A DNA stretch of 61,990 bases from Akkermansia muciniphila (GCA_945862285.1 CAMAYN010000001.1:1-61990); one strand, 5' to 3'; positions 12,461 through 54,059 are shown, counted from the stretch's first letter. Numbers and translations are program-made. The notes: generated from the letters alone by a model not told the origin.

Positions 12461-15391
<2,931 letters not shown>

Positions 15392-15520: not shown

Positions 15521-15739
15521 TCAATCGAAAAGAATCCAATCGATCATCCATCCGACACAGCGGGGGAAGAAGAAACCAAGTAGGGCACCAACGATGAGAC
15601 CAATGACCGCCAGCATGATGACTCCCTTGTAACCCTCTAAGGGGAAGCCCGAGAATGCGAAGTAATAAGCCAGCGGCACGATAACACTACATAAAATGGC
15701 CGCGATGATTGAGACGAGGATTCTTTTGCTGAGATTCAT
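15521..15739 (-). CDS. Small two-helix membrane protein (72 aa), unknown function
   Basis: Two hydrophobic helices (ILVSIIAAILCSVIVPLAYYF; VIMLAVIGLIVGALLGFFF). The ATG at 15739 lies immediately downstream of the 42-bp array. The coding call rests only on ORF and hydrophobicity. Confidence 0.45.
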   Translation of the reverse strand: MNLSKRILVSIIAAILCSVIVPLAYYFAFSGFPLEGYKGVIMLAVIGLIVGALLGFFFPRCVGWMIDWILFD

Positions 15740-15792
15740 GATCGTGAAGTTAGGGGAATGTATGATATTGTAGCAACGGAGCTGTCTGCTTG

Positions 15793-16158
15793 CCTATTTC
15801 CGATTTTGGAAGGTGGCAAACAGACGTCTGCTGAGGCATTTCCGATTTTGGAAATAGGCAAACAGACGTCTGCTGGGGCATTTCCGATTTTGGAAGATGG
15901 CAAACAGACGTCTGCTGGGGCATTTCCGATTTTGGAAATAGGCAAACAGACGTCTGCTGGGGCATTTCCGATTTTGGAAATAGGCAAACAGACGTCTGCT
16001 GAGGCATTTCCGATTTTGGAAATAGGCAAACAGACGTCTGCGGGGGCATTTCCGATTTTGGAAGATGGCAAACAGGCGTGTGCTGAGGCATTTGTGATTT
16101 TACAAAGTGGCAAACACACTTGTGCTGAGGCATTTGTGATTTTACAAGGTGGCAAAAA
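15793..16158. repeat. Tandem array A: ~9 units of 42 bp (GCATTTCCGATTTTGGAAATAGGCAAACAGACGTCTGCTGRG)
   Basis: Unit starts read directly at 15836, 15878, 15920, 15962, 16004, 16046, 16088 and 16130, an exact 42-nt spacing. A degenerate unit lies at each end. There are no unique spacers. Each unit holds two inverted repeats. The array fills the whole gap between the RND gene stop (16171) and the 72-aa gene start (15739). Confidence 0.95.
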
Positions 16159-16170
16159 TGCTAGGACGCT

Positions 16171-19100
16171 TCATGAAAACGATGAAGTAGGTGATTTTTT
16201 CGTGAGCAAATTCCAGAGATTCGTCAGCCGGAGCATGGCGGAATGGCTGATCAAATAAATCGAGGGAATCAGAAAGAGCGTGATCAAGGTAGAGAAAAGC
16301 ACGCCGAAGGCAATGGAGATGGCCATGGGCCGAAGGAACTGATTTTGCAGGGATTCATCCAGCATGGAGGGCACCATGCCGACGAAGGTGGTGAGCGAGG
16401 TAAGCAGGATGGGGCGAAAGCGTTTCACTCCCGATTCAATGACGGCATCCCAGACGCTCATGCCGTTGGCACGATGTTGGTTAATGAAATCCATCATGAC
16501 GATGGCGTTGTTGACGACGATGCCGGAGACGGCGAGAATGCCAAAGGCGGAGAGGAAAGACGGCGTCACATCCATAACAATGTGGCCGACGAGTGCGCCA
16601 ATGACACCAAAGGGAATGGATACCATAACGAAAAGTGGCTGGACGAGGGATTTGAAGGGAATCATCAGCAACGCGTAAAGGGCAATTAAAATGGCGGCTC
16701 CACCCACGAAAAGGCGGGTTTTGGTTTCGCCATGCTCAGCGATGTAACCAGTGAATTTCCATGACAAGGTAGGATGATCGACGATGAGGGCATCGAGCTT
16801 CGCTTGCGCATCATTGGCGATGCTGGTGATGTCCACAGTTTTGTCTTCGGCCTGGGCCCAGATGGTGACGGCCTGCATGCCATCGCTGCGATCAATTTCT
16901 GCGCGGGCTTTGCCGAAACTGACATCGGCAACGGTAGTAAGAGGAGCTTCACCGCCGTTGGGAATCTTGATGCGCATGGTTTCGAGGGTATGGAGGGATT
17001 CGCGTTGATCACGCGGGAGACGCACCATGACGCGAATATCATCAATCTCGCGTTGCACACGTTGGGCTTGCTCGCCGAAGAAGGACGAGCGGACTTGACG
17101 CGCTAGCTCTCGCTGCGTAAGGCCAAGCGCTTCGCCTTCGGGGCGAATGGTGGCGATGAGTTCATCGCGATTTTGCCCGAGATCGTTGCCGGCGGAGGTA
17201 ATTCCTTCGTAGGAGCGGAGTAGGTTAGCGATGTCATCAGCGAGTTTATCCCGAGCTTCCGAACCAGGGCCGCGGAGTTGGATTTTTAATGATTCTTCAC
17301 CACTACCGCCGCCGCCGCGTGAGCCGCGTCCGGAATCGACAGTGATGTAGAAAGATTGCGCGCTGCTGGTATCGCCACAGAGTTCTTTCCAGCGTTTGAT
17401 GAGAGCGCGGGTATCGGGATGTGCGGTGGTGCGGTCGGCGCTATCGATCACTGTCATGATGACGAAGCCCGAGCGGGGATCGACCCAAGGCATGCCAGGC
17501 CAACCGCCAGCGGAGCCGAGGACATCAAGGACGACGGATTTTCCGGTGGCGGGGTCGGTGAATTCTTTGCGCAATTGCTCGGCGGCTTTTTCGCAGCGCA
17601 GCACGAGTTCGTTCGTGTCCTTCACTTGCGCCGTTCGCGGCATGGTGAAATTGACAAAAAGTCGATTTTTTTCGAGATTCGGCATGGAAACGAAGCCGAG
17701 TCGTCCGCTGGTAATCAGGGCGACTGATGCGAGTGACATGGCGATGAAAAAGGCGACGCTGGCGTAGCGATGGCGCGCCGTGAAGGTGGCGAGGCGGCGG
17801 AAGTGGGTTTCGATCAGGTATTCTAGGCCATCGGCAATCCATTTTTGGAGGCGTGCAAAGCCTTGCGGGTTGGCGGGTAGGGGTTTTAAGTATTTGAGAT
17901 GACTCGGCAGACTCAGCTTTGCCTCAATCAGGGAGAATAGTAAAATCGCAGCGATGATGGGCGGTACCTGACTGGCGAATTGGCCGTAAAAGCCCTCAAA
18001 GAACATCAAAGGCAAGAATGAAACAATCGTGGTCAGTGAACCGAAGGTCACGGGCATGGCGATTTCCTCTGTGCCAGCGATGGCGGCTTGTTCCGGATCC
18101 ATGCCTTCGGACATTTTGGAATAGATATTTTCCGAGGTCACGATGGCATCATCGACGATCAAGCCTACGGCGATGATGAAGGCAAAAATGGTCATGACGT
18201 TGAGGGTCAAGCCCATCATCGGCATGACCCAAAGAGTGCCAGCAAAGGAAATGGGAATGCCAATTAACACCCAGAGAGCAATGGCGGGACGCAAAAACAG
18301 CCCTAGGACGATAATGACCAGCAGGCATCCTTGGAGCAGTGTGGAGAGTAGGGAATTGAGGCGGCCTTTGAGTTCGATGCTGCTATCGTCCCAAATGTGC
18401 AGGGTGACACCACTGGGGAATTTCGCTTTGGATTCGGTGACGTATTTTTTGACACTTTCGGCAATTTGCAGGGCACTTTCATTATTGAGGCGTAATACCT
18501 CGACGAGTAGGCAGGGTTTGCCGTTGAAGCGGAGAATTTTCCGCACTTCCTCGAAGCCATCGGTGACGCGGGCGACGTCGCTGAGTTTGACTTGTGATCC
18601 TTGGGAATTGCGCACGACGATGTCGGAAAAATCTTCTTGGGTGAAGGCTTGACCACTGGTGCGGATCATCAAATATCCTTCGGACGTTTGAATTTGCCCT
18701 GCGGGGAGATCGAGTGAAGAACGGCGGATGGCTTCGGCAAGATCGAGGTAGGTGAGGCCGTAGTCACGCAGGCGAGCGGGATCGGCCTCGATGGAGATCT
18801 CCACGGGTGAGTCGCCCTGCAGTTCTGCTTGGCTGATGCCGGGTAATGCGGTGAGGTCATCGCGCACACGTCGAGCAGCTTTCAAGAGGTCAGCTTCGTC
18901 CATTTCCCCGGTGATGGCGACTTTTATGACGTCGAACCATTTGGCACTGTTAGGGATTTCTAACTTCGGTGGTTCTACTTCTGCGGGGAATGTGGTGATT
19001 CCTTGAATGAGTGGGCGGAGTTCTTCGATGAGCTTTTCCGGGGTGGTCAACTGATTTGCCGTGACGATGATACGGGCGGTGCCGTAATTTGCCTCCGATT

Positions 19101-19338
19101 CGATTTCGGCAATGCTCGGGAGATTTTTAATCGCCCGTTCGATGGGGATGACCACGGCGCGCTCGACATCGGCAGGCGTTGCACCTCGGTAGGAAACATT
19201 GATGCGGACTTCATCGAAGCGATATTCGGGATTCACTTCGAGTGGGACTTTTTTCCATGCCGAATACGCGCCTAAAAGCACGATAATCACAACCAGGAGA
19301 TTGGCTGTTAGGTGATTTCGGGCAAACCAGGCGATCAT
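16171..19338 (-). CDS. RND-family efflux transporter permease (AcrB/HAE1-like), 1055 aa
   Basis: 12-TM RND architecture with two large periplasmic loops. N-terminus MIAWFARNHLTANLLVVIIVLLG. Conserved TM4 region AVGLIVDDAIV. No membrane-fusion or outer-membrane partner gene is adjacent in this window. Confidence 0.9.
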   Translation of the reverse strand: MIAWFARNHLTANLLVVIIVLLGAYSAWKKVPLEVNPEYRFDEVRINVSYRGATPADVERAVVIPIERAIKNLPSIAEIESEANYGTARIIVTANQLTTPEKLIEELRPLIQGITTFPAEVEPPKLEIPNSAKWFDVIKVAITGEMDEADLLKAARRVRDDLTALPGISQAELQGDSPVEISIEADPARLRDYGLTYLDLAEAIRRSSLDLPAGQIQTSEGYLMIRTSGQAFTQEDFSDIVVRNSQGSQVKLSDVARVTDGFEEVRKILRFNGKPCLLVEVLRLNNESALQIAESVKKYVTESKAKFPSGVTLHIWDDSSIELKGRLNSLLSTLLQGCLLVIIVLGLFLRPAIALWVLIGIPISFAGTLWVMPMMGLTLNVMTIFAFIIAVGLIVDDAIVTSENIYSKMSEGMDPEQAAIAGTEEIAMPVTFGSLTTIVSFLPLMFFEGFYGQFASQVPPIIAAILLFSLIEAKLSLPSHLKYLKPLPANPQGFARLQKWIADGLEYLIETHFRRLATFTARHRYASVAFFIAMSLASVALITSGRLGFVSMPNLEKNRLFVNFTMPRTAQVKDTNELVLRCEKAAEQLRKEFTDPATGKSVVLDVLGSAGGWPGMPWVDPRSGFVIMTVIDSADRTTAHPDTRALIKRWKELCGDTSSAQSFYITVDSGRGSRGGGGSGEESLKIQLRGPGSEARDKLADDIANLLRSYEGITSAGNDLGQNRDELIATIRPEGEALGLTQRELARQVRSSFFGEQAQRVQREIDDIRVMVRLPRDQRESLHTLETMRIKIPNGGEAPLTTVADVSFGKARAEIDRSDGMQAVTIWAQAEDKTVDITSIANDAQAKLDALIVDHPTLSWKFTGYIAEHGETKTRLFVGGAAILIALYALLMIPFKSLVQPLFVMVSIPFGVIGALVGHIVMDVTPSFLSAFGILAVSGIVVNNAIVMMDFINQHRANGMSVWDAVIESGVKRFRPILLTSLTTFVGMVPSMLDESLQNQFLRPMAISIAFGVLFSTLITLFLIPSIYLISHSAMLRLTNLWNLLTKKSPTSSFS

Positions 19339-22153: not shown

Positions 22154-24772
22154 TTACTGCATCGGCAGCACACCTACTGGAGGAATTAAGTCAGTTGCCC
22201 CTACAGGAGTAATCGCCTCTGCGTCAACTGTAGGTGCAACGTTCGTATCTTTCAATACGGCACCCGTAGCATCGATGACTTGTGCGGTGACAAAAACAAT
22301 CAAGTTACTCTTGATCCGATTTTCCGCTTTGGTTTGGAAGAGTCGGCCAACGATGGGAATATCACCTAAAATCGGCACCTTATCTTCGACGTTTTGCACA
22401 TCTTCGCGCATCAAGCCGCCAACCGCTATGGTATGACCGTCATAGATCGAAAGAGTCGTATTGACGCGACGCACGGAGAAAACAGGCATTTCGATGCGGT
22501 TTTCCGTGACAACGACAGTTGTAGGGTTACCTAATGCGTCAGTCGAAGGCGACTGAATTGGGCTGCCGTAGTTAATGAAACCTTCGAACTCGACAATTTC
22601 AGGAGCAAATGTGAGTTCAATCACAGAGTTATTTGCCGACAAAGTTGGTTCGATCTCCATCGTGACGCCGGTGTTTCGAGTTTCAAATTCGACGGGTGTT
22701 GCAGGTGTTACAGTCGCCCCTTGACCACCGCCGCCACCGCCGCCCTGTCCGAATCCTCCGTTAAAGTTGCCTCCAACGTTCTGAGGGATCTGTGGGGGTT
22801 CGTAAGCAATTGGATAAATAAACTCGCGAATGATCTCAATCTTCGCTTTTTGACCAGACTTCGCCATGATGCTAGGCGCTGTCATAATGTCGGCACCTTT
22901 TTTCTGTGCTAATCCACGCATGATCATCTGCACTTGTCCATCAGTAAACAGACCTGTGAGGCTAAGGATACCAGGAGCGACGGAAGCATTTTGCGCGGTG
23001 CGAGTTGGATTGTTTAGAATAGCATCGATACTGTCGCGGGTAATCGCTGTAGAACCACTGCGATTTGAGCCTGTTACGATATTTGTTACATTCGTTCCAG
23101 TGGCGAGAGGAATACCGTCAATCGATTCGCCGCCTACAAAGTTCAAGAAGTCGGCGTTGGTGCGTCCTGGGCCGTTGCCGACTGTGCCGCCGCCGGGAAA
23201 TAGACCTCCGCCGATGGAGAAGGGCGCCACGATCCAATCAAAGCCAAGTTCATCACTGTTTTCTTGGCTAATCTCGACGAACTTCGTCAAGATTTTGATT
23301 TGTTTCGGTGCACCAAGCTCGAGGCTTCTTACAATCTCCTCGATCAACTCCATGTTGGTTGCTGTGTTGCGAACAATGAGTGTGCTATTTGCTGGATTGT
23401 AGGAAGCAGAAGCCTTTTCTGAAAAGGGAACTCCGCGGTTGATGAGCGCCTGTTGCGCTGTGGGCTTTGGTTTTAATGAGCTAGCTCCACCTGGGGCAGG
23501 TGTGGCAAATGGGTCTTCTGGTGCCGCGCCGCCACCTTCACCTTCACCACCTACTGCAGTAAGGAAATCAGGTGGAACAGTAAAGACACGATAAATAATT
23601 TCTTCGGTATCATCGCTGATCGGGACGATGCTTACCGCGTATTCGCCGACACGATATTTCATTCTTGCCGCTTCGCAGATTTGGCGAAGTGCTTCGGAAA
23701 CAGGGACGTTAGTTAGAAACAATTTGGGAATGCGAATCTGAGACGCATCGGTAGTAGTCGTAGTGGTATCGAGTGGTGCTGCTTCTAGTCCGCCGTCTGC
23801 GGCAGGAGCGGCAGCACCTGATGAGCGTGGACGTGGGATGACAAAGTTGATTCCTTTCGTCGTGTCGCTAGTAGCGAAGGTATCCAATTCTTTGCAACGC
23901 ATCCGCAGGAAATCAATGGCCTCGGAAAGAGTCGTGTCTTCTAGATTGACTGTTGGAAGAATGATACTGTTGAGTTTTTTGATGATTTGCGAAGATCCGC
24001 CGTCATTTCGATCCACACTTCCTGTATTGCTTGGTCCTTGAGGGAGTCCCATGGGGACTGCTAATTCCCATGCTTTATCGACTTGGGAAAGCAACTCGGC
24101 GCGGGCGTGGTCATACGCGGATCTGTAATACGCTGTTTTTGCAGCGGCGACTCTTTCCATCCAACGACGGGCGGCTGAGTTGTAGGGATCAATTAATAAA
24201 ATTTTCTCAAACTCTTTCTTGGCCTCATCAAATTTACCAAGATTGTAATATCCTTCACCATTGTATAGTGTGCGGCGAACTTTATCAACATCTTGGGTGT
24301 GCTTGAATGTGAGCACAGGATTGTGCTGAATCGGATCTTCTAAGATGCTAAGCTCTTTTTTCGCCAAGCCATTTTCTGGGTCAACTCCGGGGGCTAGCAC
24401 ACCCTCAATCAATGCACGGGCTTCGGCACTTTTACCCACCTTGCGAAACTGTCCGGCGAGAGCAACGGCGGCATTGGCGTAGTCAGCCGTCATAGCCGCG
24501 CGACGATCTGCAAGAATCGGTGCGTTGGGAAGAAGACTGATTGCTGCTCTGAGTTTGTCATGCGCTTCTTGATAATTTTCTTGTTGATACGCAACGCGTG
24601 CATCTGCTTGCAACTTATCAGCTTCTTTCACTGCGGCAATGCGGCGAGCGATTTCGCGTGAGGCAGTGCTGCCCGATTCTTGCTGGGCGTGAAGAGCTAC
24701 TGGCATGATGGAGGCTGTTGCGAGGAGCATCGCCAAGGTTTTCTTAATCGATATCGATGGTGTTTTTTGCAT
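22154..24772 (-). CDS. pilQ: Type IV pilus / T2SS-family outer-membrane secretin with N-terminal TPR-like region
   Basis: Signal peptide. C-terminal secretin domain (VPILGDIPIVGRLFQTKAENRIKSNLIVFVTAQVI). Last gene of the pilM-containing operon. It corresponds positionally to Amuc_1098 of Akkermansia muciniphila. Confidence 0.85.
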   Translation of the reverse strand: MQKTPSISIKKTLAMLLATASIMPVALHAQQESGSTASREIARRIAAVKEADKLQADARVAYQQENYQEAHDKLRAAISLLPNAPILADRRAAMTADYANAAVALAGQFRKVGKSAEARALIEGVLAPGVDPENGLAKKELSILEDPIQHNPVLTFKHTQDVDKVRRTLYNGEGYYNLGKFDEAKKEFEKILLIDPYNSAARRWMERVAAAKTAYYRSAYDHARAELLSQVDKAWELAVPMGLPQGPSNTGSVDRNDGGSSQIIKKLNSIILPTVNLEDTTLSEAIDFLRMRCKELDTFATSDTTKGINFVIPRPRSSGAAAPAADGGLEAAPLDTTTTTTDASQIRIPKLFLTNVPVSEALRQICEAARMKYRVGEYAVSIVPISDDTEEIIYRVFTVPPDFLTAVGGEGEGGGAAPEDPFATPAPGGASSLKPKPTAQQALINRGVPFSEKASASYNPANSTLIVRNTATNMELIEEIVRSLELGAPKQIKILTKFVEISQENSDELGFDWIVAPFSIGGGLFPGGGTVGNGPGRTNADFLNFVGGESIDGIPLATGTNVTNIVTGSNRSGSTAITRDSIDAILNNPTRTAQNASVAPGILSLTGLFTDGQVQMIMRGLAQKKGADIMTAPSIMAKSGQKAKIEIIREFIYPIAYEPPQIPQNVGGNFNGGFGQGGGGGGGQGATVTPATPVEFETRNTGVTMEIEPTLSANNSVIELTFAPEIVEFEGFINYGSPIQSPSTDALGNPTTVVVTENRIEMPVFSVRRVNTTLSIYDGHTIAVGGLMREDVQNVEDKVPILGDIPIVGRLFQTKAENRIKSNLIVFVTAQVIDATGAVLKDTNVAPTVDAEAITPVGATDLIPPVGVLPMQ

Positions 24773-24840
24773 GTGCGTCGAGGTGTTTATGTCGTGTTAG
24801 AGTGGGATTGAAAAGAGGAAATTTCGAAAATGTTTACGAA

Positions 24841-25968: not shown

Positions 25969-25998
25969 TTTAAATAAGAATGGGGATAAAAATGATGA

Positions 25999-26970: not shown

Positions 26971-27003
26971 AATGCGAGAAAGATGCGGTAGAGTCGGAGT
27001 GAA

Positions 27004-28863: not shown

Positions 28864-28918
28864 ATTTGTTAGATTTTTTTGAAGAAAAAATGGTATGAGG
28901 AAATGTGGTGTGACCTAA

Positions 28919-41950: not shown

Positions 41951-42044
41951 GCGAGGACAGTAGAAGGGCAGGGGAGTCCTGCCAAGCATTTTGATCAACA
42001 AGTGTTGTTAGTATTCTTGAAAAGTCAATGATTGCCCAAATGTA

Positions 42045-43016
42045 TTAGTGAGGTAAACCCTCGAATAAGGTCGCAGCGTGTTTGTAGATTGGGTCATTTT
42101 TATCATCGATTTTATTTTTGATACTTTGTAGCTCCGAAAGCGATCCCGGACTGTTTTGTAATGCAATTTCATCTATTACCAATCTTCTTATACTTATATG
42201 CAAATCGTTTTCAAAAGTTTTGTAGAAAGTAAAAAGGTCTTGTTCATTCTTTATGTAACTTTTGCCAGTATAAATTGCTAAAGCTCTGTAAATCGGGTTT
42301 TTTGAATTTCCCATATTTTTCAACATATTTATGTTTTCTTCTTGAGATGAATTTTTGAATGGATTAACATCACTAGCAATTCTAGCTAAAAATATATCTC
42401 CTAATTGCGGTTCTTCTTTGGACATCCGTTCCTTAAAGAACTTATCAATGCCGGAATTATTTGTCTGTGAGTATAAAGCATAAACCGCGTACAATCCATA
42501 AGCGCCTGACATTTCATCATCAGTTAGCTTTGACGTGCTACTTCCTTTTCTCAATTCTTCTACAAATTTGCTAGAACTACGGAATAATACACTAAAGTCA
42601 ATATTCGCTATGTCAACAGTCACTTCAAAATCCTCAATCCAATACCTGCTTGCAAGTTGTGTCAACTTTTGCGAAGTTTTTGCAATATCCGATTCTTTTA
42701 GAATTGCAGAATTTAATTCTGCTAAAACTAATTTAGCGTAAGCAGGAATTTCTTGTAATGGAACTTCATTTCCAGTATCACTTATTGAGTTAGCGGTGGG
42801 TAATGGTCTTGTATCTTTCACAGAAATTCCATGAAAATCAAATTCCCTTAGAATGCTTTCATCAGCAATATTATTACCTGATTGTTGTCTTTTGAGTGAA
42901 GCCTCGCTTTGTGTTTTGGTAGTGCGATTTTCTTCAGAAATTTTTTCTTTCTTGCAAGATGACAAACCAGATAGAAACAGAGTAAGAATGATTATGGTGT
43001 TTGACGAATGGGCCAT
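42045..43016 (-). CDS. Lipoprotein of unknown function (323 aa), very AT-rich gene overlapping the end of 42992..45658
   Basis: Lipobox LFLSGLSSC after MAHSSNTIIILT. The predicted helical C-terminus looks repeat-like (NPIYRALAIYTG..., DPIYKHAATLFEG). My hand count is ~25 % GC in 42301..42400. 25-nt overlap with the upstream gene. Confidence 0.65.
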   Translation of the reverse strand: MAHSSNTIIILTLFLSGLSSCKKEKISEENRTTKTQSEASLKRQQSGNNIADESILREFDFHGISVKDTRPLPTANSISDTGNEVPLQEIPAYAKLVLAELNSAILKESDIAKTSQKLTQLASRYWIEDFEVTVDIANIDFSVLFRSSSKFVEELRKGSSTSKLTDDEMSGAYGLYAVYALYSQTNNSGIDKFFKERMSKEEPQLGDIFLARIASDVNPFKNSSQEENINMLKNMGNSKNPIYRALAIYTGKSYIKNEQDLFTFYKTFENDLHISIRRLVIDEIALQNSPGSLSELQSIKNKIDDKNDPIYKHAATLFEGLPH

Positions 43017-45658
43017 GACTGAAAAATTAGATAAGTATTTACGTAGTAATAGGGAGGTCCGTTATGCTTTGCACCTTTTATGACTGTTTTAATTGGAGCA
43101 CCTCCCTTGCTGTATGCTAAGGCCACCGATGTTGATCCATCCAAGAATAGTAACTCGATTTCATCAGCGCGGCCACCTGTTAGTTGTTTGACCCCTGATT
43201 TTTTAGCGTCATGGGCAAGATCCTTTCCTCTCCCCGTCCCAACTTCAGATGATGCACTAAATATAATACCTTTCGTAGCTTGCCCACTCTTATTGTAGTA
43301 GCCGATTGACTGAATTTCATTACCATCAGATTGCCGCTTATCGAAATTTGCTGATAAGCCTCCCATTCCAGATCGCGGATTTGCGGCGTTATTTGTAGAA
43401 CTTGAAGGTAGCACGCTTGCTCCCCAAGAGTAATTTCCCGTCGATAACTCTCTGATATAATTGCCACCTCGATCCCCATTAGGCATAGGCTCAGGACCAG
43501 CTAATGGACTGAAAGGATTACCATGAGCAGGTAAATGAGCATCGGATGATACAATTTGATCCAGAACCCCATTTCTTACAACCCTTCCATGGCAACGATC
43601 AGTTATATCGCCTCGAATTCCTGCTCCCGCAGGATTTCTGTCATCAATGAAAAAGCATTGATTTCCGTTTATAGTTACCGTAGCAGGGTAAGCAGCAATA
43701 ACTGCATCAATTCCTTTGAGTTGACCGCCATTAGCTCTCCTGGATGCGTCTATAGGAAAAAGTCTAGTCTGTTGTTCTAGCATAAAGACCAACCGAAATG
43801 TATCTGCACCGTAAGCACGCTGAACAACACATAGTGTCGTATTATTCTCCCTAATATAATCTTCAACTGTTTCAAAAAATCTAGAAGCACCAAATCTTTT
43901 AATAACGGTTAGGTCAAGTTTCAAAGAAGTCTGCACATCCTTGAATTCCCCATCGATTTTTTCACGAAATTTGAGAACAAGTTCTCCTTCTACTTGGGGA
44001 TTATCTGCGGGATAAGCTACATCAACATCAGCTCGTGCATAGATGATTTTTGGCAAAGGGTTGCTTCCACTCACCACAAACCGATTTCCTGTTTTTAGTC
44101 CAAGCGCGTCTTTGCATTCTGCTGTTTTGTAGAAAGTAAGTCGATCAATCCCAGGATGCTCTAGCCATATCTCGCCTTCTTCAATACCGCAAGTTATTGC
44201 GATCGCTTCTGCATCGTCGTCATTGATTTCACTTTTTGGACGATCTGGGTCTGAATCGCCAATGTCCCACTTGCCATTTGATAAATTATCATTCGCGAAC
44301 ATAAACTCCGTGCCCAATATTTTTGCATTACTACCTGCCGCTGCGCTCTGCGCGGCATCTCGTAAGGTGATGTCCTTGGTATCAATGACACCATCATTGT
44401 TTAAATCAGATAACAACTGAACAGGAATTGTTTTTGCATCGGCGACAAAAATTGTTCCCTGTTGGATCCCTGGTGATTCTTGAGGGGAAATATCAAGAGG
44501 AGCAGAATTCATCGCTCCCGCGCTAACATATTGTTCGAGTTTATCATAGGTAGTAATGAAACTTTCATTTTCATTGAAAATCCGATGGCGCACAATGAAG
44601 TGAAATTTGCTCTGAGCCTCTGCTAACTCGGGTAACACCGTCCAAATTCTTCTGGCTGACAGGTAAGCATTTTCGCTTCGTCCCTGTTCTTCCAATCTTT
44701 GAGTTGATTCAAACAAATTCGTCTCTTCTGGTTTTAGCTCATCTTCTGTCGGCAGATTGGGAAACGCTTTTAATGCTAGCATGTCGCGCAACTCTTGAAG
44801 AGTTTTGAAACTTTGAATCTCGCTCGTAACGTTGGTTTCATCCCAAGTTGCTAACGTAGTAACAAGGCCTTCTATTCCAGAAGAAGGGTTATTAGGTGTT
44901 GTATTATCATTACAACCATACTGCAAAGCCTTCAAGGCATTCACATGTCTGTATGGCATGCTTGCTGCTAGTATTGGATTTGAACCAAAGTGTTGTTCAT
45001 GTCCGTCATCAATGCCATCTCCATCTGTATCGGGATTCGTCGGTGAGGTTCCGGTAAGTATTTCCATTATATCGCTTATTCCGTCACGATCTGTATCCTT
45101 CAGTAATAAGTTTGTGCCAACAAGATATTCTTCATAGGTTGTCAAGTCGTCACTGTCTTCGTCGCGGTCTGTGACTTTTACGCGGTAAAACAACTTGGGT
45201 GGCGGAGCGGTGGTGTTGGTGTTTTCCGGGTCGGTCGCTTGAATGGCGATGGTGTGAGCGGTGTCGTTCGCTGCGGCATCGATGATTGGCCCGATGTTGA
45301 CCCAGAAATGGAGGTTGGTGCTGGCTTGAATACGGTAGTTTTTCCCGGGGATCACCGGCCAAGTGAGTTCGTAAGTTGCGGCGGTGGCGGTGGATTGGAT
45401 CGCGAGGGCAGTTTTCCCGTTTGAGCCATTGGCGGAGAAGGGATTTGTTCCCGCTAGGGCTTCTTGGGCGTTTGTCCAACCGTCTTGATCGGGATCGGCG
45501 GTCGCGGCGTGGGTGGCGTTACTCGCCTGAAAGAGTTGGCTGGTGTTGTATTGCTTTTCCCATACATCGCTTAGGCCGTTAGCGTTTGTGTCGAGGATGG
45601 CAAGGAGTGGGAAAATGCTGAAAATCTGAAACGCTAAAAAGCTGAAAATGGTTTTCAT
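42992..45658 (-). CDS. Secreted modular protein (888 aa): shared ~165-aa N-module, then a unique payload with Asp-rich Ca-binding-type motifs and a possible phosphodiester-glycosidase-like tail
   Basis: I place the start at ATG 45658 (MKTIFSFLAFQIFSIFPLLA), which forms an ATGA with the upstream stop. I do not use the track start at 45733. The N-module ADPDQDGWTNAQEALAGTNPF...ELTWPVIPGKNYRIQASTNLHFW...KLFYRVKV is homologous to 7602..9629. The tail has TINGNQCFFIDD...GRVVRNG and ELLFLDGSTSVALAY (weak NAGPA-like resemblance). Confidence 0.75.
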   Translation of the reverse strand: MKTIFSFLAFQIFSIFPLLAILDTNANGLSDVWEKQYNTSQLFQASNATHAATADPDQDGWTNAQEALAGTNPFSANGSNGKTALAIQSTATAATYELTWPVIPGKNYRIQASTNLHFWVNIGPIIDAAANDTAHTIAIQATDPENTNTTAPPPKLFYRVKVTDRDEDSDDLTTYEEYLVGTNLLLKDTDRDGISDIMEILTGTSPTNPDTDGDGIDDGHEQHFGSNPILAASMPYRHVNALKALQYGCNDNTTPNNPSSGIEGLVTTLATWDETNVTSEIQSFKTLQELRDMLALKAFPNLPTEDELKPEETNLFESTQRLEEQGRSENAYLSARRIWTVLPELAEAQSKFHFIVRHRIFNENESFITTYDKLEQYVSAGAMNSAPLDISPQESPGIQQGTIFVADAKTIPVQLLSDLNNDGVIDTKDITLRDAAQSAAAGSNAKILGTEFMFANDNLSNGKWDIGDSDPDRPKSEINDDDAEAIAITCGIEEGEIWLEHPGIDRLTFYKTAECKDALGLKTGNRFVVSGSNPLPKIIYARADVDVAYPADNPQVEGELVLKFREKIDGEFKDVQTSLKLDLTVIKRFGASRFFETVEDYIRENNTTLCVVQRAYGADTFRLVFMLEQQTRLFPIDASRRANGGQLKGIDAVIAAYPATVTINGNQCFFIDDRNPAGAGIRGDITDRCHGRVVRNGVLDQIVSSDAHLPAHGNPFSPLAGPEPMPNGDRGGNYIRELSTGNYSWGASVLPSSSTNNAANPRSGMGGLSANFDKRQSDGNEIQSIGYYNKSGQATKGIIFSASSEVGTGRGKDLAHDAKKSGVKQLTGGRADEIELLFLDGSTSVALAYSKGGAPIKTVIKGAKHNGPPYYYVNTYLIFQSWPIRQTP

Positions 45659-46557
45659 TGGCCACCTCCTTGCTGAGTTTGAGCTTCTTGTTGCTCTTGG
45701 AGTTTTTCTGCCATCGTTTTTTCGGGAGTCCAATAGCGGATGATGAGGTTAGGAGTTGGGTCGGGAGGGTTGGCGGCTAATGCAGCGGCACGGCGGGCGT
45801 TTTCTTCTTTGAGGGAGGCAGATTTAGCGATGAAAGCGGCGTGGTGCTGTTGGTAGAGTTCGTGCAGACCATCGAGGGCGGCGAGGTCGGTTTCATCGGG
45901 ATTCCCTTGGGTAATGGCGTAGGTGGGTTGCGTTGTGGAATCGGTGGGGAGTTCGGGAATTGATGGTGGGGTATAGGTTTTTCCTGCTTGTGCGGCGCGG
46001 GTGGCGGCTTGGGAATTAGATTGATCGCCAATGCCAAACATGACGTTGTGGGTAATGTTGGCTTTGTTGAAGGCGTGAAGATGGGTGAGGTGATGGAAGT
46101 TGACGTTTGACCATGCTTCGTAGAATTCGGTGGGAGTTTTCCCTTGGCTTGTCCAGCGGATGTGGGTGCGAGTGGTGCCGTTGGCCTCGTCGTGATGGAC
46201 GGTGCAGGAAAGCATCGTCATGCGGTGTTCGGTGCGATGAGCAATCCTTGCGGCACGAGCGGCTTGTTGTTCCGGTGTTACAGGTTCGGGGGTTGGAGCG
46301 GCATGTGGAAGAGGAATGTCTTGGGGGACGACTTCTTGAATGGTGATGGTTTGATCTGGGCGAACGACGGTGCGGGAAGAAATGATTTCATCTGGGGTGA
46401 TTTCGAGTTTTGGGGCGGCGGGAACAGCGGGCGCGCTAGGTGCTGCTTGCTCGGGGATGAGGGTGGCGGTCTCATCGGCATAGGTTGCAGGAAATAGATT
46501 GACCACGAAGAACGCGAGAGCGTAGAGGCGCGAATTTTGTAAGAGACTGATTTTCAT
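45655..46557 (-). CDS. Signal-peptide protein of unknown function (about 300 aa), paralogue of 9626..10528, translationally coupled to 42992..45658
   Basis: Likely start at ATG 46557 (MKISLLQNSRLYALAFFVVNLFPATYA). HRMTMLSCTVHHDEANGTTRTHIRWTSQGKTPTEFYEAWSNVNF and ANPPDPTPNLIIRYWTPE match the paralogue. Confidence 0.7.
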   Translation of the reverse strand: MKISLLQNSRLYALAFFVVNLFPATYADETATLIPEQAAPSAPAVPAAPKLEITPDEIISSRTVVRPDQTITIQEVVPQDIPLPHAAPTPEPVTPEQQAARAARIAHRTEHRMTMLSCTVHHDEANGTTRTHIRWTSQGKTPTEFYEAWSNVNFHHLTHLHAFNKANITHNVMFGIGDQSNSQAATRAAQAGKTYTPPSIPELPTDSTTQPTYAITQGNPDETDLAALDGLHELYQQHHAAFIAKSASLKEENARRAAALAANPPDPTPNLIIRYWTPEKTMAEKLQEQQEAQTQQGGGQ

Positions 46558-47460: not shown

Positions 47461-47498
47461 GCTCCTGCTGTGAGAAAAATCGCGGCAGGAGCTTTTTT
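47461..47498 (+). terminator. Rho-independent terminator after the family-A gene
   Basis: Stem GCTCCTGCTG / CGGCAGGAGC (47461..47470 and 47483..47492; one G-T pair), 12-nt loop, then TTTTTT at 47493..47498. Confidence 0.75.
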
Positions 47499-47813: not shown

Positions 47814-49175
47814 ATGCAACGTTTGGCACTGTTAAATATCGTGGGCTTATCTGCGTCTCTGATCGATGATCGGATGCCGCGATTTTCTGCGTGGGCGAGG
47901 CGGGCGGGGCTGCAATCCTTTTCTCCGGCATTTCCTGCGGTGACTTGTACGGCACAGTCGGATATGCTCACAGGCACAGATGCCGATGGGCATGGCATTG
48001 TGGCAAATGGTTGGTATGATCGGGAATCCTGTGAAGTGCGATTTTGGAAGCAGAGCAATCATTTAGTGCGTGGGGAGAAGATCTGGGATGTATTGAAACG
48101 CGAAGTGCCAAACTTCACCTGCGCCAATTTATTTTGGTGGTATAACATGGCAACGCGGGCGGATTTCGCGGTGACACCGCGGCCACTGTATTTGTCGGAT
48201 GGGGCGAAGCATTTTGACATTCATACCCAGCCGATGGGCTTGCGGGAGGAATTGAAAAGTGATCTCGGGGCCTTTCCGTTTCCGTCGTTTTGGGGGCCGG
48301 CGGCGGGGATTCCTTGTAGCCAATGGATTGCTCGTTGTGCGAAGTGGATGGAGGAAAAGTACTCGGCACATTTGAATTTGGTCTATTTGCCGCATTTGGA
48401 TTATGGTTTGCAAAAATATGGGCCAGGAGCTGCGGAGATGGAGGTGGAATTGCGGGCGATCGATGAGGTGGTGGCTGATTTGATTGATTTTTACGAGTCG
48501 CGTGGGGTGCGGGTGATGTCGGTTTCTGAGTATGGTATTTCTGCGGTGGAAACTCCGGTGCATCTGAATCGGATCTTGCGGGCGAATGGCTGGCTATCGA
48601 TCAAAGATGAATTGGGTCGCGATGGCTTAGATTTTTTTCAATCGGATGCAATAGCCGTGGCGGATCATCAAGTGGCGCATGTGTATTTGAAGGATCGGAG
48701 TCGTATGGGGGAAATGCGGGAGTTGTTAGAAAAACAACGTGGCGTGGAGAGTGTGAAGGAAGCGCAAGAAATCTGGGCCAATGGTGGAGCGAATGACCGG
48801 GCGGGAGATTTAGTCGTGACGGCGGCGGCAGGGCATTGGTTCACGTATTATTTTTGGGAGGATGACAATCGTGCGCCGGATTATGCGCGCTGTGTGGATA
48901 TTCACCGCAAACCGGGCTATGACCCAGCGGAGTTATTTCTCGATCCGAAAATCGCTATGCCGAAGTGGGAGATTGCGAAATTTTTGCTGAAGAAAAAGAT
49001 CGGTATGCGAGCCTTGATGGAGGTGATTCCTTTGGATGCGAGCCTAGTAAAAGGATCGCACGGCAGGGTGGATGTGCTGGATGAAGAGCGCCCGATCATT
49101 GCTGGTGCGGATCACGAGATCGGTAGTGCGAAAGAGGTTTTTTCTGCGATGTTGCAACATTTTCGGAATGGCTAA
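47814..49175 (+). CDS. Alkaline-phosphatase-superfamily protein (type I phosphodiesterase / nucleotide pyrophosphatase-like)
   Basis: Nucleophile/metal motif SPAFPAVTCTAQSDMLTG. Other motifs are VYLPHLDYGLQKYGP and SEYGI; 453 aa. Confidence 0.8.
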   Translation: MQRLALLNIVGLSASLIDDRMPRFSAWARRAGLQSFSPAFPAVTCTAQSDMLTGTDADGHGIVANGWYDRESCEVRFWKQSNHLVRGEKIWDVLKREVPNFTCANLFWWYNMATRADFAVTPRPLYLSDGAKHFDIHTQPMGLREELKSDLGAFPFPSFWGPAAGIPCSQWIARCAKWMEEKYSAHLNLVYLPHLDYGLQKYGPGAAEMEVELRAIDEVVADLIDFYESRGVRVMSVSEYGISAVETPVHLNRILRANGWLSIKDELGRDGLDFFQSDAIAVADHQVAHVYLKDRSRMGEMRELLEKQRGVESVKEAQEIWANGGANDRAGDLVVTAAAGHWFTYYFWEDDNRAPDYARCVDIHRKPGYDPAELFLDPKIAMPKWEIAKFLLKKKIGMRALMEVIPLDASLVKGSHGRVDVLDEERPIIAGADHEIGSAKEVFSAMLQHFRNG

Positions 49176-49312: not shown

Positions 49313-51784
49313 TTAGAAGCCAATCGCGTCAGTGACTCGAAATTCTCTTATAGCAACGGGTTTTTTCGTTTTTTCGTCAAATTCTACTGTCATCCAGCGT
49401 TGTTCATTTTTCGCTACGATTAAGACACGACCATACGCAAGATGCTCCGCTAGCACCTTAGGAGCTTCTTTACTTGTCTCGAAACGCTCCTTCGGATCGG
49501 CAAGGAGAGCCCCAAGCTCTGTTTTCCTACCTTCAATGCCAATTACAAAGTCAGGGTAAAAACCACGTCCATTGTCCATGAGAACATTCACCGACCACGG
49601 CTTATCAGGCTCGTTACGGTGCCACCACTTCACTATGTTGTTAGGCTCACGGTCTAAAATCTCAGCAAACTCACGTTCCCAGCCATTCATTTGCGCGGGA
49701 ATGACTCCATAGATGTTACGTGGCGATTGCGTAAGATAGCCACACGCCGTAATTTCCGCTGGTAATTCCGCCGCTTCGATGATTTCGGCAGATGCTGCCA
49801 AGGCTTTCTTTTGCGCATCCCACAGCAGTTCCGCTCTCGTTGCCAGAATAACGTTGAGAAAGTGGGCAACTTTTTCGTCATCATCCGCCTCTGCCATGGC
49901 CTCTTCTCTCATCACCATTTTCATTTTTTTAAGTAAGGCTCGTCGCAGTTCTCGCGGATCGAATACCTTATTTTTGCACAGAGCTTTGTGCGCAGACTGA
50001 GCCGCCTGCGTAGGGGAAAGCTCCGCTGCAAAATTGAATTCTTGTTGAATATTTTGAGTAAAAACATCCAAGGTGCGCTTTTCCACAGGGATGCGATTTT
50101 TCATCACATCAAAAAGTTCACGGGCAGACACAGCGAAACGATTCGCACAATCCTCTTCTGTCACATCGTTCTGCGGGGAAACAACTTGCGTCTTAAACTT
50201 CTGTGGCATGCCCGCACGGAGCGTGTATCGCTGCACATCCGCAGAGCCCGCTACCTGCTTTGGTGCTGCATCAGGTGAATCCCCCGTACCTTCAGCGCCG
50301 CCGATCCCGAAAAACTTGCCGAAATCCAGTGCCGAAGGAGGGGTAAATTCAGCAGACTCTACTGCATTATCCTCATCTTCCTCAGTGTAACCTTGCCCTC
50401 CTCCTGTTTCTTGTGTTTCAAGGCCAAAAAATTCGATCTGCCCTATTTTGTCAACTCGACTCACACCTGTCACATTCTCGCCGAAGCGCACGGCAATCGT
50501 CGCCGTGCTAGCACGAGCATAAGCTGTTTTAATGGCATTGATTTTTTGCCCTGCGATGTCTAAGCCTGCTTGCGTCTCGGGAGCGGCGAGAAATACCAAG
50601 CCATGCGTCAATTCTAGCGGTAATTTTTGCGCCTGTGCTTTTGCTTGGAGCAGCCGATGCACCCGTAGAATCCGCCCGACGAGTTGCACGCCAAAGTCCG
50701 CATCGCGGCTCGCGCGCATGGACACTAACGTAAAAGCACGAGGGGCATCAAAGCCTAATGCCACAGCCATTTTAAAAATCAGCACCTCGCGGCGTGGTTC
50801 ATTTGCGAGTGCCAGAAGGCCGCTATCGGGTTCTTCTGCGGTGTGGATGGCGATTTGTTCATCAGTAAACCCCATGCGCAGAAGGCGTGACTTTAAACGC
50901 TCGATGCTCCCATCCGTCGAGTCGGCCTGCACAAGCAGCAATGGCACGAGAGGGATTTTCATCTCCTCTAGCTTGCGCTTGATCATTCTGTGCGCCGCCA
51001 CGCCATCGCGCAAAGCCGTACCCACGAGGTCGGCAAGACTCCGTTTCTCTGGATCCACAAAATACGCCGCACATCTTACCCCCATCTTGATTAGGCCAGA
51101 GTCAACAGCATCTTCGCGGCTGACGCTGATCCGGTGCAGTTCTGCCACTGACAGTGCTTTTTGAAATGCCTTAATGTCTGCATCGTCAGGAGTCGCCGTG
51201 ATCAGAACTGTATATTCTGGTTGCAGGGTCTCTTTGAAAAATTTAGCGGCCAATGTGCTCTCGCCAAATCCATGGTGCGCTTCATCTACCACCACGCCGA
51301 TGCGCATCCCTTGGGCGCGTAATCGCGTAATGAGCTTATCGATCGAGGGATTCGTGTCCCCCTCTTTGCGGATGTTACGCTTGTCTTTGACTCGGGTCGC
51401 CACCGCAGCCCACGTCGTGACGAATGTATCTCCCTTGCGGCTGCCTTCTGCTGCGCGGTCGTCTGCTAGGTCACGAACTTGCAGACCATTAAACTCTTCT
51501 CTGAGAAAAGCTTCCGTTTGCTGAACGACTCCCTTAAAGGGCGCAAACCAAAACCACACGACATCTTCTTCATGGCTGAATTTTTCTAATATCGTCCCCG
51601 CCATGAGTGTCTTGCCTGACCCCGTAGGAGCCTCGATCAAGAGATATCCGTTATGATTGATCGCCCGTGTACGGCTCGCGGAATCCGTTCCCGCCGCATC
51701 CAGGAGCTGGCGTGTCGCCATAAATAATTCATAGCCACTATCCACAGCCCGCTCCTGAAATCCTTTGAGTGTTTTCTTGCTCAT
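49313..51784 (-). CDS. res: Type III restriction enzyme Res subunit (SF2 DEAH helicase plus C-terminal PD-(D/E)xK-like nuclease)
   Basis: Walker A EAPTGSGKT. DEAH box VVDEAHH. Helicase C-terminal motifs. C-terminal YPDFVIGIEGRKTELGALLADPKE nuclease-like motif. 6-nt gap after mod. Confidence 0.85.
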   Translation of the reverse strand: MSKKTLKGFQERAVDSGYELFMATRQLLDAAGTDSASRTRAINHNGYLLIEAPTGSGKTLMAGTILEKFSHEEDVVWFWFAPFKGVVQQTEAFLREEFNGLQVRDLADDRAAEGSRKGDTFVTTWAAVATRVKDKRNIRKEGDTNPSIDKLITRLRAQGMRIGVVVDEAHHGFGESTLAAKFFKETLQPEYTVLITATPDDADIKAFQKALSVAELHRISVSREDAVDSGLIKMGVRCAAYFVDPEKRSLADLVGTALRDGVAAHRMIKRKLEEMKIPLVPLLLVQADSTDGSIERLKSRLLRMGFTDEQIAIHTAEEPDSGLLALANEPRREVLIFKMAVALGFDAPRAFTLVSMRASRDADFGVQLVGRILRVHRLLQAKAQAQKLPLELTHGLVFLAAPETQAGLDIAGQKINAIKTAYARASTATIAVRFGENVTGVSRVDKIGQIEFFGLETQETGGGQGYTEEDEDNAVESAEFTPPSALDFGKFFGIGGAEGTGDSPDAAPKQVAGSADVQRYTLRAGMPQKFKTQVVSPQNDVTEEDCANRFAVSARELFDVMKNRIPVEKRTLDVFTQNIQQEFNFAAELSPTQAAQSAHKALCKNKVFDPRELRRALLKKMKMVMREEAMAEADDDEKVAHFLNVILATRAELLWDAQKKALAASAEIIEAAELPAEITACGYLTQSPRNIYGVIPAQMNGWEREFAEILDREPNNIVKWWHRNEPDKPWSVNVLMDNGRGFYPDFVIGIEGRKTELGALLADPKERFETSKEAPKVLAEHLAYGRVLIVAKNEQRWMTVEFDEKTKKPVAIREFRVTDAIGF

Positions 51785-51790
51785 AAATGT

Positions 51791-53671
51791 TTATCCTTTC
51801 ATGCCAAATCGCCGCGCTAAGCCTTCTGGTATCGCCTCATATTGCAAAAGATTCATGCGTATATGTTGCCTTAATGCTTCTGGCTGCCATGAGTAAATCA
51901 CTGCACCTGCTAGTTCATGCACTGCCGCTTTGATGGCGGGAACGATTTTCTTAGAAAAGCGTGGTATATAAAGGAGTCCAGAATCCCCATCGAGCGAGAT
52001 CTGAAAATCCCCAACCGCAAAAGGAAACAAAACTTCCCGATGAATCATTTGTAATGCTGTCCACACTTGTTCGTGCTCGATTTCTAGCAATTTTCCCGGA
52101 GAAATACGACGGCACTTGAGGTAGGCAAAGTCGCCTTCTAATGCCTCAATTTCTTTGACGCCATTCCGCGTGGGAACGCTATATCCTTCGATTAACCTGC
52201 GCACACGCTGAGCGCAAACATCACGGCAGAGATTTTTAAGAGGCTGCTCCTTCGTCGCCTCGCTGTTCGAGACTAGGATAAACCGCCTTGCTCCACCGTC
52301 CTCCAGATTTTGCTCTAACACAGCTTGCCCCGTAGTGCCTGACCCAGCAAAGAAATCAAGAATTAGATCATCATCACTCGTTGTTTGTCGGATGAAAGAC
52401 TGAATCAAGGAAAGCGGCTTAGGGTAATCAAAGTCCTTGTTACCCATGATTTCTTGAAGCAGAGAAGTCCCATCAGATGTGCCACCGACTACGGCTATAT
52501 TTAGTCCATCTGTATCGATTTCGCTGCGTTCATTCTTCTTTAACGCTGCGGGCATAAGCCATGAAGAAAAGGGCTTCTCTGATCGCTTCACTTCACTTAA
52601 ATGGCGTTTGTAGCGTGGTTTCCCATAACCAATCTTTTTACCCACCCAGAAATCCAGTTCATGCTCCCAGAATGCCCGTTCTTCTTCATTCGCCCCTAGC
52701 CTGAGATTACGCGGTGCAGTGCCCTCTTCTACGGCGGCGCGTAATTCCTCCTTGCTCTCGTATTGTATGACCTTCTCCTCCTTCGGCCACAGCACTTTTT
52801 TTTCGGCAATAATTTGCTCCATCGTCAAACTGCGCAGTTGCTGGCCAGGCTTTAGCCTAGCTTTTGAGGAAAAGCGCCAGACGTTGTCAGGATCACAGGC
52901 ATACCACGTTTCCGTAGTGGGATTGTAGATCGGGTAAAAAGTATTAGGCCGCTGCTTGTAGTTTTTATTTTGCACCAAATTATCATTATTCCAAGCCCCC
53001 CGTGGATCATCATCATCATTGGTATAAGCGTCAGTGGATTTGACTTTACCGGCGAAGGAAAAATTCGTCTTGGCGTAGCAGAGCACATGCTCATGATCTA
53101 CGCTGCGGAAGTATTCTTTGGAGTCATTTGCCCCGCTACGCGTCCGCCAAACGAAGCTACCTACACGCCTACCCGGCATGACCTTATCAAGAAGTAATTC
53201 CAGTTTTGCCCGGCTCTCATCATTGATGCAAACCAGCATCACGCCATCGTCACGCAGCAAGTCGCGGGCGATGATGAGACGTTGGTAGAGGAACTCGATC
53301 CATGTGGAAAAACGCCATGAATCATTCTCGCCCACAAAACTGTCATTGTACACGAAATCTTTCTTTCCCGTATTATAAGGCGGATCGATCAAAATGCACT
53401 TAATCCGCCCTGCGTATGCCATGCGTAGGTAACGCAGCGCATCAAAGTTATCGCCCTCGATGATGAGATTCCGCCAGCCCTCGCTAGGTGCTTGTTGTGG
53501 CTCAGAGTGCTCCGGTAGGAAATCCAGTGCCACGAAGTCTGCATTGATGGCTTTATCTCTTTCAATTTCATTGGTTTCCCAAACTAAGCCGAAGCGTGAA
53601 GCATCGCGGCTGTCACGCGTTTCTAGAAGTCGGATTAATTCATCCTTAGTGAGGTGATCATATTGCGGCAT
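51791..53671 (-). CDS. mod: Type III R-M Mod subunit (beta-class N6-adenine/N4-cytosine DNA methyltransferase)
   Basis: Catalytic LIDPPYNTGKKDFVYND lies upstream of the SAM-binding FFAGSGTTGQAV. That is the motif IV then motif I order of beta-class Type III Mod proteins. 626 aa. Confidence 0.9.
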   Translation of the reverse strand: MPQYDHLTKDELIRLLETRDSRDASRFGLVWETNEIERDKAINADFVALDFLPEHSEPQQAPSEGWRNLIIEGDNFDALRYLRMAYAGRIKCILIDPPYNTGKKDFVYNDSFVGENDSWRFSTWIEFLYQRLIIARDLLRDDGVMLVCINDESRAKLELLLDKVMPGRRVGSFVWRTRSGANDSKEYFRSVDHEHVLCYAKTNFSFAGKVKSTDAYTNDDDDPRGAWNNDNLVQNKNYKQRPNTFYPIYNPTTETWYACDPDNVWRFSSKARLKPGQQLRSLTMEQIIAEKKVLWPKEEKVIQYESKEELRAAVEEGTAPRNLRLGANEEERAFWEHELDFWVGKKIGYGKPRYKRHLSEVKRSEKPFSSWLMPAALKKNERSEIDTDGLNIAVVGGTSDGTSLLQEIMGNKDFDYPKPLSLIQSFIRQTTSDDDLILDFFAGSGTTGQAVLEQNLEDGGARRFILVSNSEATKEQPLKNLCRDVCAQRVRRLIEGYSVPTRNGVKEIEALEGDFAYLKCRRISPGKLLEIEHEQVWTALQMIHREVLFPFAVGDFQISLDGDSGLLYIPRFSKKIVPAIKAAVHELAGAVIYSWQPEALRQHIRMNLLQYEAIPEGLARRFGMKG

Positions 53672-54052: not shown

Positions 54053-54059
54053 GTGAGTA

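Follow-up and report, generated by a model that had tools for sequence, protein, structure and literature searches.

Why is the whole gap between two co-oriented genes taken up by a tandem array? The question arises in a 61,990-nt stretch of DNA deposited as Akkermansia muciniphila (GCA_945862285.1, CAMAYN010000001.1:1-61990; this whole 62-kb stretch is called the window throughout), in which 42-bp repeats lie between the gene for an RND (AcrB-family) permease, here called the pump gene, and a small open reading frame (ORF) of 72 amino acids (aa). A preliminary description, made from the sequence alone, had treated the array as a feature of the operon whose inverted repeats are kept by selection. 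We found that the array is absent from some closely related strains, that its number of units varies at this one site and that the same repeat family occurs at other loci. With a probability of roughly 0.6, we take the array to be a local tandem amplification of a new interspersed repeat family in freshwater, Akkermansiaceae-like Verrucomicrobiota, which behaves like the interspersed repetitive units of mycobacteria (MIRUs) and the BOX elements and is tolerated at a coupling junction. Its membership of a dispersed family makes a regulatory role at this one locus unnecessary as an explanation.

Alleles of the array at the pump locus

With Tandem Repeats Finder, the array came out at a period of 42 over 15796-16143 (8.3 copies, 90% matches) and at a period of 84 over 15796-16156. 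When the units are laid out in register, there are eight full 42-bp units from 15796 to 16131 and a partial ninth from 16132 to about 16156, or about 8.6 units as assembled, which agrees with the nine exactly phased units of the preliminary description. The pump stop (16171) and the ATG of the small gene (15739) are separated by 431 nt, and the array block fills all of this gap, as had been claimed. The whole block (15742-16169, about 428 nt) is made up nearly entirely of 42-bp units and contains a degenerate unit 0, the eight full units, a terminal copy of the first of two unit modules (M1) and a 13-nt tail. Searches with the two unit motifs gave 7 and 8 matches, as compared to 0.2 and 0 expected from shuffled sequences, with none elsewhere in the window, and a profile search with the aligned units likewise found no further copies there.

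The individual motifs largely bear out the preliminary description, with some corrections. The first inverted repeat held to be typical, ATTTCC-GATTTT-GGAAAT, is perfect in only four units, and the three remaining canonical units end in GGAAGG or GGAAGA; the palindrome CAGACGTCTG, also held to be typical, is indeed perfect in six window units. In the two pump-proximal units, which start at 16090 and 16132, both arms of the first repeat have changed together to give ATTTGT-GATTTT-ACAA, just as reported. A flipped G3:C8 pair in the second repeat had been reported as well; it is present in unit 16090, where the palindrome reads CACACTTGTG, but the central pair is broken there. The unit described as an intermediate does carry CAGGCGTGTG, but it starts at 16048 and not at 16046.

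We found the same site in other states in related strains. In runs X2, X3 and X4, which hold strains about 95% identical to the window, Logan contigs join position 15734 to position 16170 and skip 435 nt. At this joint the seven letters TTCATGA fit either side, and one copy is kept. The empty site reconstructed in this way has the pump end TCG TTT TCA TGA overlapping the start of the small ORF, ATG AAT CTC AGC, that is, an ATGA stop/start overlap. In run X5 we found a minimal allele of about one unit, which consists of unit 0 with eight substitutions, one M1 and a tail with one change and a 1-nt deletion; its flanking single-nucleotide polymorphisms (SNPs) are those of X2-X4. A public contig that encodes an identical pump (L001; ENA ERZ27280300) is 99.7-99.85% identical to the window and carries two full units and the terminal variant unit, or 2.6 units. 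This allele has a new in-register junction, CTGCTGGGGC joined to ATTTGTG, which is absent from the window and was spanned by the assembler at k = 141; it is thus not a collapse artefact. We had considered the block length, a multiple of three at 435 nt, as meaningful and dropped this idea, since the X5 allele adds 98 nt.

The comparison of strains therefore gives a series at one site of 0 units (X2-X4), about 1 (X5), 2.6 (L001) and 8.6 (the window), and the view of the array as a fixed feature of the operon had to be given up. Array pieces or whole alleles recur in independent assemblies (L001 and runs X1, X5, X6, X8, X9, X11, X12 and X13), which rules out an assembly artefact. In X6, X9 and X13, the array pieces are found together with a flank or unit 0 of the pump locus; X8 and X12 gave array pieces only, and the array contig of X11 ends in a foreign flank. 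We found the locus in sequencing runs of metagenomes from freshwater, lakes, drinking water and wastewater, and the best homologues of the pump are proteins from metagenome-assembled genomes of Akkermansiaceae/Verrucomicrobiia, at no more than 71% identity. The array could serve as a variable-number tandem repeat (VNTR) marker for strains of this lake bacterium, and a natural allelic series of 0, ~1, ~3 and ~9 units at a translational-coupling junction could be used for tests of coupled expression.

A dispersed family of two-module units

By a pattern scan of metagenomes, we found contigs L122 and L123 of a related verrucomicrobium, on which seven 42-bp units of this family form an array flanked by a Doc toxin gene on one side and by an unrelated gene on the other. 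Elsewhere, L122 is 79% identical to window 46580-46797. This second locus also varies in copy number, with 7 units in L122 as compared to about 2 in the protein record P0122. The ATTTCC strand is the sense strand at L122 and the antisense strand in the window, and the family is thus found in both orientations relative to its flanking genes. A third array (L125), which was found through a protein search with an array ORF, adjoins the 3' end of a CDF transporter gene; the contig ends within the array.

Single units were found as well. In the X26/X27 runs, a solitary unit with unrelated flanks (X26 record 2) has a depth of 22.5, as compared to 21.5 for the L122 genome, and it was also seen in X28 (record 4) and X33 (record 21). 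This solitary unit and the array are at equal depth, which indicates at least two loci in the L122 organism. More solitary units with unrelated flanks are present in X1 (record 3) and X6 (record 9), and X11 (record 3) has a second flank for the window-type array; these X1, X6 and X11 copies come from communities that hold the window's species. With the loose pattern ATTTNNGATTTTNNAANNNGGCAAA, we obtained at least 116 single chance matches on genome contigs of unrelated taxa, which makes this pattern uninformative for genome-wide copy number, and the viral contig, phage and plasmid collections held no match to the repeat.

The L122 locus had at first sight resembled the pump locus, with an array at a start codon and a duplication of GGTTG. 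This was rejected, since in 691 homologues of P0122 the protein begins only at what is residue 59 of P0122, a point about 85 nt past the array. From ORF translations of L122 4685-5328, the array there lies directly after a pair of genes for an AbrB/MazE-like antitoxin and a Doc (Fic-family) toxin, and the gene behind it belongs to a large family with no Pfam domain.

To describe the unit, we aligned 16 distinct units from the three arrays (window, L122 and L125; alignment A1). The first module, M1 (GGCATTTCCGATTTYGGAAGGTGGC; also written GGC-ATTTCCGATTTYGGAAGGTGGC), is nearly invariant, and the array consensuses differ at only 2-3 of its 25 positions. In the second module, M2, 5-12 of the 17 positions differ between arrays, and yet M2 is palindromic around ACGT throughout: it reads CAGACGTCTG in the window, CACACGTGTG or CTCACGTGTG in L122 and TCCACGTGGA or TCCACGAGGA in L125.

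The two proposed helices pair in 86% of alignment cells, as compared to 78% in shuffles (0 of 500 shuffles reach this value). Five pairs have changes on both sides (equalled in 5 of 500 shuffles), and the covariation score is 0.277 as compared to 0.130 in shuffles (0 of 500). When the registers are slid by 1-3 columns, only 33-50% of cells pair. In our reading, about four independent double changes lie behind this covariation: in the end units of the window, M1 went from CC/GG to GT/AC; L125 shows C:G to T:A and A:T to C:G; and C:G to G:C separates the window from L122. On this reading, the palindrome form that had been called flipped is probably the older one. The majority units of L122 and of L125 each have one palindrome mismatch, indicating that the upkeep of symmetry is not strict.

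These data show that the paired changes seen in the preliminary description are real and extend across loci. Its further claim, that selection keeps the symmetry, stands in part: covariation exceeds that in shuffles, but the upkeep is not strict and no role specific to the locus is called for. Among the outcomes named there as telling against it were relatives that lack the array and inverted repeats broken at random. The first we did find, in X2-X4; as for the second, paired arm changes exceed those in shuffles across the arrays.

Known repeat systems, a possible mechanism and its alternatives

We found no account of such repeats in Verrucomicrobiota in the literature. By analogy, the closest systems in behaviour appear to be the MIRUs and then the pneumococcal BOX elements; we claim no homology to either sequence family. 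In two accounts, MIRUs are described as tandem units of 40-100 bp in operon gaps with internal inverted repeats, with filled and empty sites and short direct repeats (4 bp reported). Their insertion is at start codons and leaves a -4 overlap, an arrangement believed to spare the downstream gene as far as possible; M. tuberculosis carries about 40 MIRU loci (PMC12548453, citing Supply et al. 1997; PMC3184786). The array resembles them in its head-to-tail 42-bp units between the co-oriented minus-strand pump gene and 72-aa ORF, in a copy number that varies between strains, in a site that exists both filled and empty with a short direct repeat (TTCATGA) at its borders, in having internal inverted repeats and copies dispersed at several loci and, in the window, in its position at a start codon, where the TGA of the array ORF and the ATG of the next gene overlap as ATGA. 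It differs in that it belongs to another phylum and has a direct repeat of 7 bp, not 4 bp. The start-codon site is found at one locus only, whereas the L122 array lies about 85 nt upstream of a gene start and in the opposite orientation. The two-module layout, in which the palindrome of one module covaries and is particular to its locus, is not known from MIRUs.

BOX elements have the structure boxA-(boxB)n-boxC, with an internal module of roughly 45 bp that occurs in tandem and in variable number. Like BOX, the family has a variable tandem module, is intergenic and dispersed, has strong predicted RNA structure and no coding capacity of its own, and lends itself to use as a VNTR marker; unlike BOX, it showed no distinct counterparts of the conserved boxA and boxC ends, the array being bordered by a decayed unit and a short tail, and it has no terminal inverted repeats. 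If our interpretation is right, an uncultured freshwater verrucomicrobial lineage joins the few bacteria known for interspersed intercistronic repeats that amplify in tandem, such as MIRU and BOX.

REP/BIME elements are palindromic intergenic repeats, often within operons, which are thought to fold into hairpins as ssDNA or RNA and to be moved by an HUH enzyme that recognises such hairpins (RAYT). The family shares with them short palindromic intergenic repeats whose palindromes show compensatory changes. However, REP clusters usually alternate in orientation and have variable spacers, and here we found exact 42-bp direct tandems. The REP end tag is given as GTAG or CGTC (PMC3733652). No such tag is conserved in this family, as CGTC is found in the window M2 only and is replaced by CGTG in L122 and by CGAG or CGTG in L125, and no RAYT gene was seen in the window. 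With no conserved tag and no Y1/HUH transposase domain among the scanned window ORFs, we rejected REP/RAYT as an identity. In the sopC site of plasmid F, which adjoins sopAB and is bound by SopB, a 43-bp unit carrying a 7-bp inverted repeat is present 12 times in tandem. The array is similar in being made of exact tandem units with an inverted repeat in each, but it is chromosomal, intercistronic, dispersed and dispensable, with no partition genes nearby. A centromere of the sopC/parS type was rejected, as no partition domains were found among the window ORFs and the family occurs at several loci. A CRISPR array was rejected because the 17-nt variable module is identical in all units of an array, so that there are no unique spacers.

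If the array arose by amplification of an interspersed repeat, a short M1-M2-M1 element would have entered the ATGA junction and duplicated 7 bp. The copy number would then have shifted by in-register slippage or unequal recombination, from about 1 to 9 units, and the L001 junction would be of this kind. Empty alleles would be either sites that were never filled or precise losses across the 7-bp repeat. The duplication would leave a decoy ATG at the pump stop that opens only a 10-codon ORF (16175..16143), and the duplicated ATGA would recreate the stop/start overlap before the small gene at the end of an array sense frame (15736..16155) that is free of stops. With this overlap and frame, ribosomes that translate the array could be handed on to the small gene, and the block would be tolerated. 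The dyad symmetry could be kept because pairing of the strand serves the element itself in its propagation, its expansion or the structure of its transcript. Quasi-palindromes can be corrected by template-switch mutation, and such correction might also maintain the symmetry with no selection at all; the covariation of the palindromes between loci would offer a clean case for telling these two explanations apart. If the array alters how the pump or the small gene is expressed, this would be a side effect and not the reason for the array. Any regulatory role at the pump locus is hypothetical, and the array gives no pointer to a new kind of regulatory system.

Several observations weigh against this interpretation. 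Filled alleles are present in both SNP lineages and empty alleles in one only; on this distribution, insertion is no more parsimonious than precise loss, and strains with an empty site may have lost the block precisely across the 7-bp repeat and not be in the ancestral state. The block has no terminal inverted repeats, and no transposase, integrase, recombinase or HUH protein was found among the scanned ORFs of the window. Insertion at a stop/start junction was seen at the pump locus only. The covariation, in itself, would also fit a functional hairpin or a dimer-binding site. As outgroups for insertion versus deletion, we tried relatives of the pump at 70% identity (L002-L004 and L126-L129); these were rejected, having different neighbours and no small ORF.

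A stronger version of the amplification reading is that the array is a MIRU-like mobile minisatellite which arose convergently, is moved through its hairpins by a structure-specific enzyme and favours ATGA junctions with downstream coupling kept. We regard this as rather doubtful. If it were true, selfish repeats would have a safe harbour at operon junctions in a second phylum, unrelated to the first.

It is unlikely that the array is a functional, structured part of a polycistronic mRNA, whose M1 and M2/M2 hairpins would stabilise the message, serve as RNase-processing sites or decouple its genes, with the number of units tuning how much pump is made relative to the small protein. The folding analysis that the preliminary description had called for gave z = -7.0 for the sense RNA of three units, –5.2 for the antisense RNA and –5.4 for single-stranded DNA relative to shuffles, and the sense-strand value together with the arm covariation is what such a segment would predict. 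The fold is strong mainly because neighbouring M2 palindromes pair and enclose an M1 hairpin; alone, M1 (4-6 bp) and M2 (3 bp and a loop) are weak hairpins, and this shortness speaks against the proposal. It is favoured by the filling of the entire intercistronic gap, in which we found no terminator-like site, and by variant units that pair only through G-U on one strand. One of these is the first-unit palindrome of run X13 at window 15821-15830, CATGCGTGTG, which pairs in full on the plus strand only with G-U and is mismatched on the opposite strand, a single observation and a possible hint at which strand matters. REP and BOX elements have been reported to have effects of this sort (PMC3184786). 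However, the orientation to the flanking genes differs between the window (antisense) and L122 (sense), and strains about 95% identical do without the array. A search of the whole window against Rfam 15 gave no matches at the gathering thresholds; below them we saw only noise from miRNA hairpins (19-24 bits as compared to thresholds of 84-245).

We consider it improbable that the units are phased DNA-binding sites, one every 42 bp or about four helical turns, for a dimeric regulator or a nucleoid or partition protein, with M1 and/or the ACGT-centred palindrome as the putative operator. The exact phasing would fit such sites. So would M2, a spacer-less palindrome of 10 bp whose ACGT core hardly varies and which suits a dimer better than a hairpin, and M1, which differs very little between species that share about 79% identity in their genes. 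In contrast, the palindrome arms change between loci while symmetry is kept, as base pairing predicts, and a fixed protein would be expected to hold the sequence. Single copies, copies at unrelated loci and strains that lack the array also argue against it, and no ParA/ParB or other partition protein and no regulator adjoining the array were found among the scanned window ORFs.

Finally, a real protein of 14-aa repeats (candidates: a 127-aa ATG ORF at 15750..16133 on the minus strand and a 166-aa ORF at 15758..16258 on the plus strand) is hardly credible: four of six frames are open across the canonical unit and public gene callers have placed ORFs on the arrays (the 82-aa ORF on L001, P0121 and the N-terminus of P0122), but the variable columns fall 9/10/10 over the codon phases with no three-base periodicity, M1 is conserved at the nucleotide level with no synonymous drift, the family lies in either orientation to its flanking genes, searches of 5.8 billion proteins with the repeat peptide in one frame and then as a six-frame composite returned only the incidental calls P0121 and P0122, the homologues of P0122 do not begin until 58 residues after its N-terminus, which derives from the repeat and was added by a gene caller, and the repeat number varies freely, down to no array at all. 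The earlier judgement that selection here is not on a peptide thus finds support.

Flanking genes and other features of the window

The coordinates of the pump locus are collected in Table 1.

Table 1. Features of the pump locus, in window coordinates.
Feature	Coordinates	Strand	Basis
RND (AcrB-family) permease gene, whose stop codon falls within the direct repeat	16171..19338	-	Pfam ACR_tran, E = 2.6e-170; homologues in Akkermansiaceae/Verrucomicrobiia
72-aa ORF with apparently two hydrophobic stretches; putative small membrane partner of the pump	15521..15739	-	Translation
Stop-free array frame in the pump's frame, 139-aa ORF with TTG start, which shares ATGA with the 72-aa ORF (its own TGA, the latter's ATG); candidate ribosome-delivery ORF, not a conserved protein	15736..16155	-	
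10-codon ORF (MKRPSIFATL, then stop) starting at the duplicated ATG that overlaps the pump stop; apparent by-product of the duplication	16143..16175	-	Sequence
Left block end: 12-nt end piece, then degenerate unit 0 (15754-15795) with decayed M1 and decayed M2 (GCAACGGAGCTGTCTGCTTGCCT)	15742..15795		Register layout
Eight full units, each with M1 (ATTTCCGATTTTGGAA..GGC, arms TTCC/GGAA) and M2 (10-bp palindrome)	15796..16131		Tandem Repeats Finder, motif searches, alignment
Terminal partial unit, M1 only, variant ATTTGTGATTTTACAAGGTGGCAAA	16132..16156		Register layout; identical terminal unit in L001
Right tail AATGCTAGGACGC	16157..16169		Sequence
Pump-proximal direct repeat TTCATGA, with pump stop TGA 16173..16171 and duplicated orphan ATG 16175..16173	16170..16176	-	Sequence; empty-site joint
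Distal direct repeat TTCATGA, with ATG of the 72-aa ORF 15739..15737 overlapped by TGA 15738..15736 that ends the array ORF	15735..15741	-	

The 72-aa ORF has no Pfam match, an exact protein look-up returned no record for it and the public gene caller did not call it. It is intact in the ~95% strains, with four amino-acid changes from seven substitutions, and is absent beside pump homologues at 70% identity. In array-free strains, where the pump is coupled to it through ATGA, it may be a candidate small partner of the AcrZ kind. The permease gene has no adjacent gene for a membrane-fusion protein or an outer-membrane factor, and its upstream neighbour is MurJ.

The public call on L001 is an 82-aa ORF at 13081-13329 of that contig (window 16010-16258, plus strand), which runs antisense through the array into the 3' end of the pump gene and is probably an annotation artefact of the stop-free repeat. 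The array breaks short-read assemblies and draws spurious gene calls, with this 82-aa ORF called and the real 72-aa ORF missed. In the gap, we found one promoter-like site, TAGGCA-18-TACAAT, on the minus strand at 15796..15767, 28 nt upstream of the small-gene ATG; such sites are no more frequent here than in shuffles. The sole RNA run (X25) gave patchy contigs of a strain about 96% identical, none of them over 15601-17055.

Two further arrays lie elsewhere in the window. Array B (47492-47686) has 9.3 tandem 21-bp units (CTTTTTGCTCGGAAGATCGAC) and is located 130-320 nt upstream of a gene for a type I phosphodiesterase/nucleotide pyrophosphatase (47814..49175); it is kept in the ~95% strains with one unit more (X2 and X4) or fewer (X1). 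Array C (53828-54032) has about nine units of 22 bp (GGAACTCGGAAGTCGAAGTTGA) and is located 157-360 nt upstream of mod, which forms a type III restriction-modification pair with res (mod 51791..53671, res 49313..51784). Arrays B and C have CTCGGAAG-TCGA in common. The preliminary description had related the 42-bp unit to them; this was not borne out, as the unit profile matches neither and only the hexamer TCGGAA is shared. From 49162 to 54100, no X2 or X4 contig was found apart from short scattered matches, and this region looks like a strain-specific island.

A pilus-like cluster on the minus strand (22154-29533) encodes a secretin, a PilM-like protein and homologues of Amuc_1100 and Amuc_1102, which supports the placement in Akkermansiaceae. 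The stretch from 42001 to 44000 is low in GC (38% as compared to about 50% elsewhere) and may be acquired DNA; it covers an ORF with no Pfam domain (42045..43016) and the end of a 913-aa bacterial TSP3-repeat protein (42992..45733). The LigA gene (12461-15376, minus strand, 971 aa) has a Kinase-PolyVal Ser/Thr/Tyr kinase domain (residues 284-418) inside the adenylation domain, which Pfam matches in two separate stretches, and the kinase insertion is also present in the public annotation.

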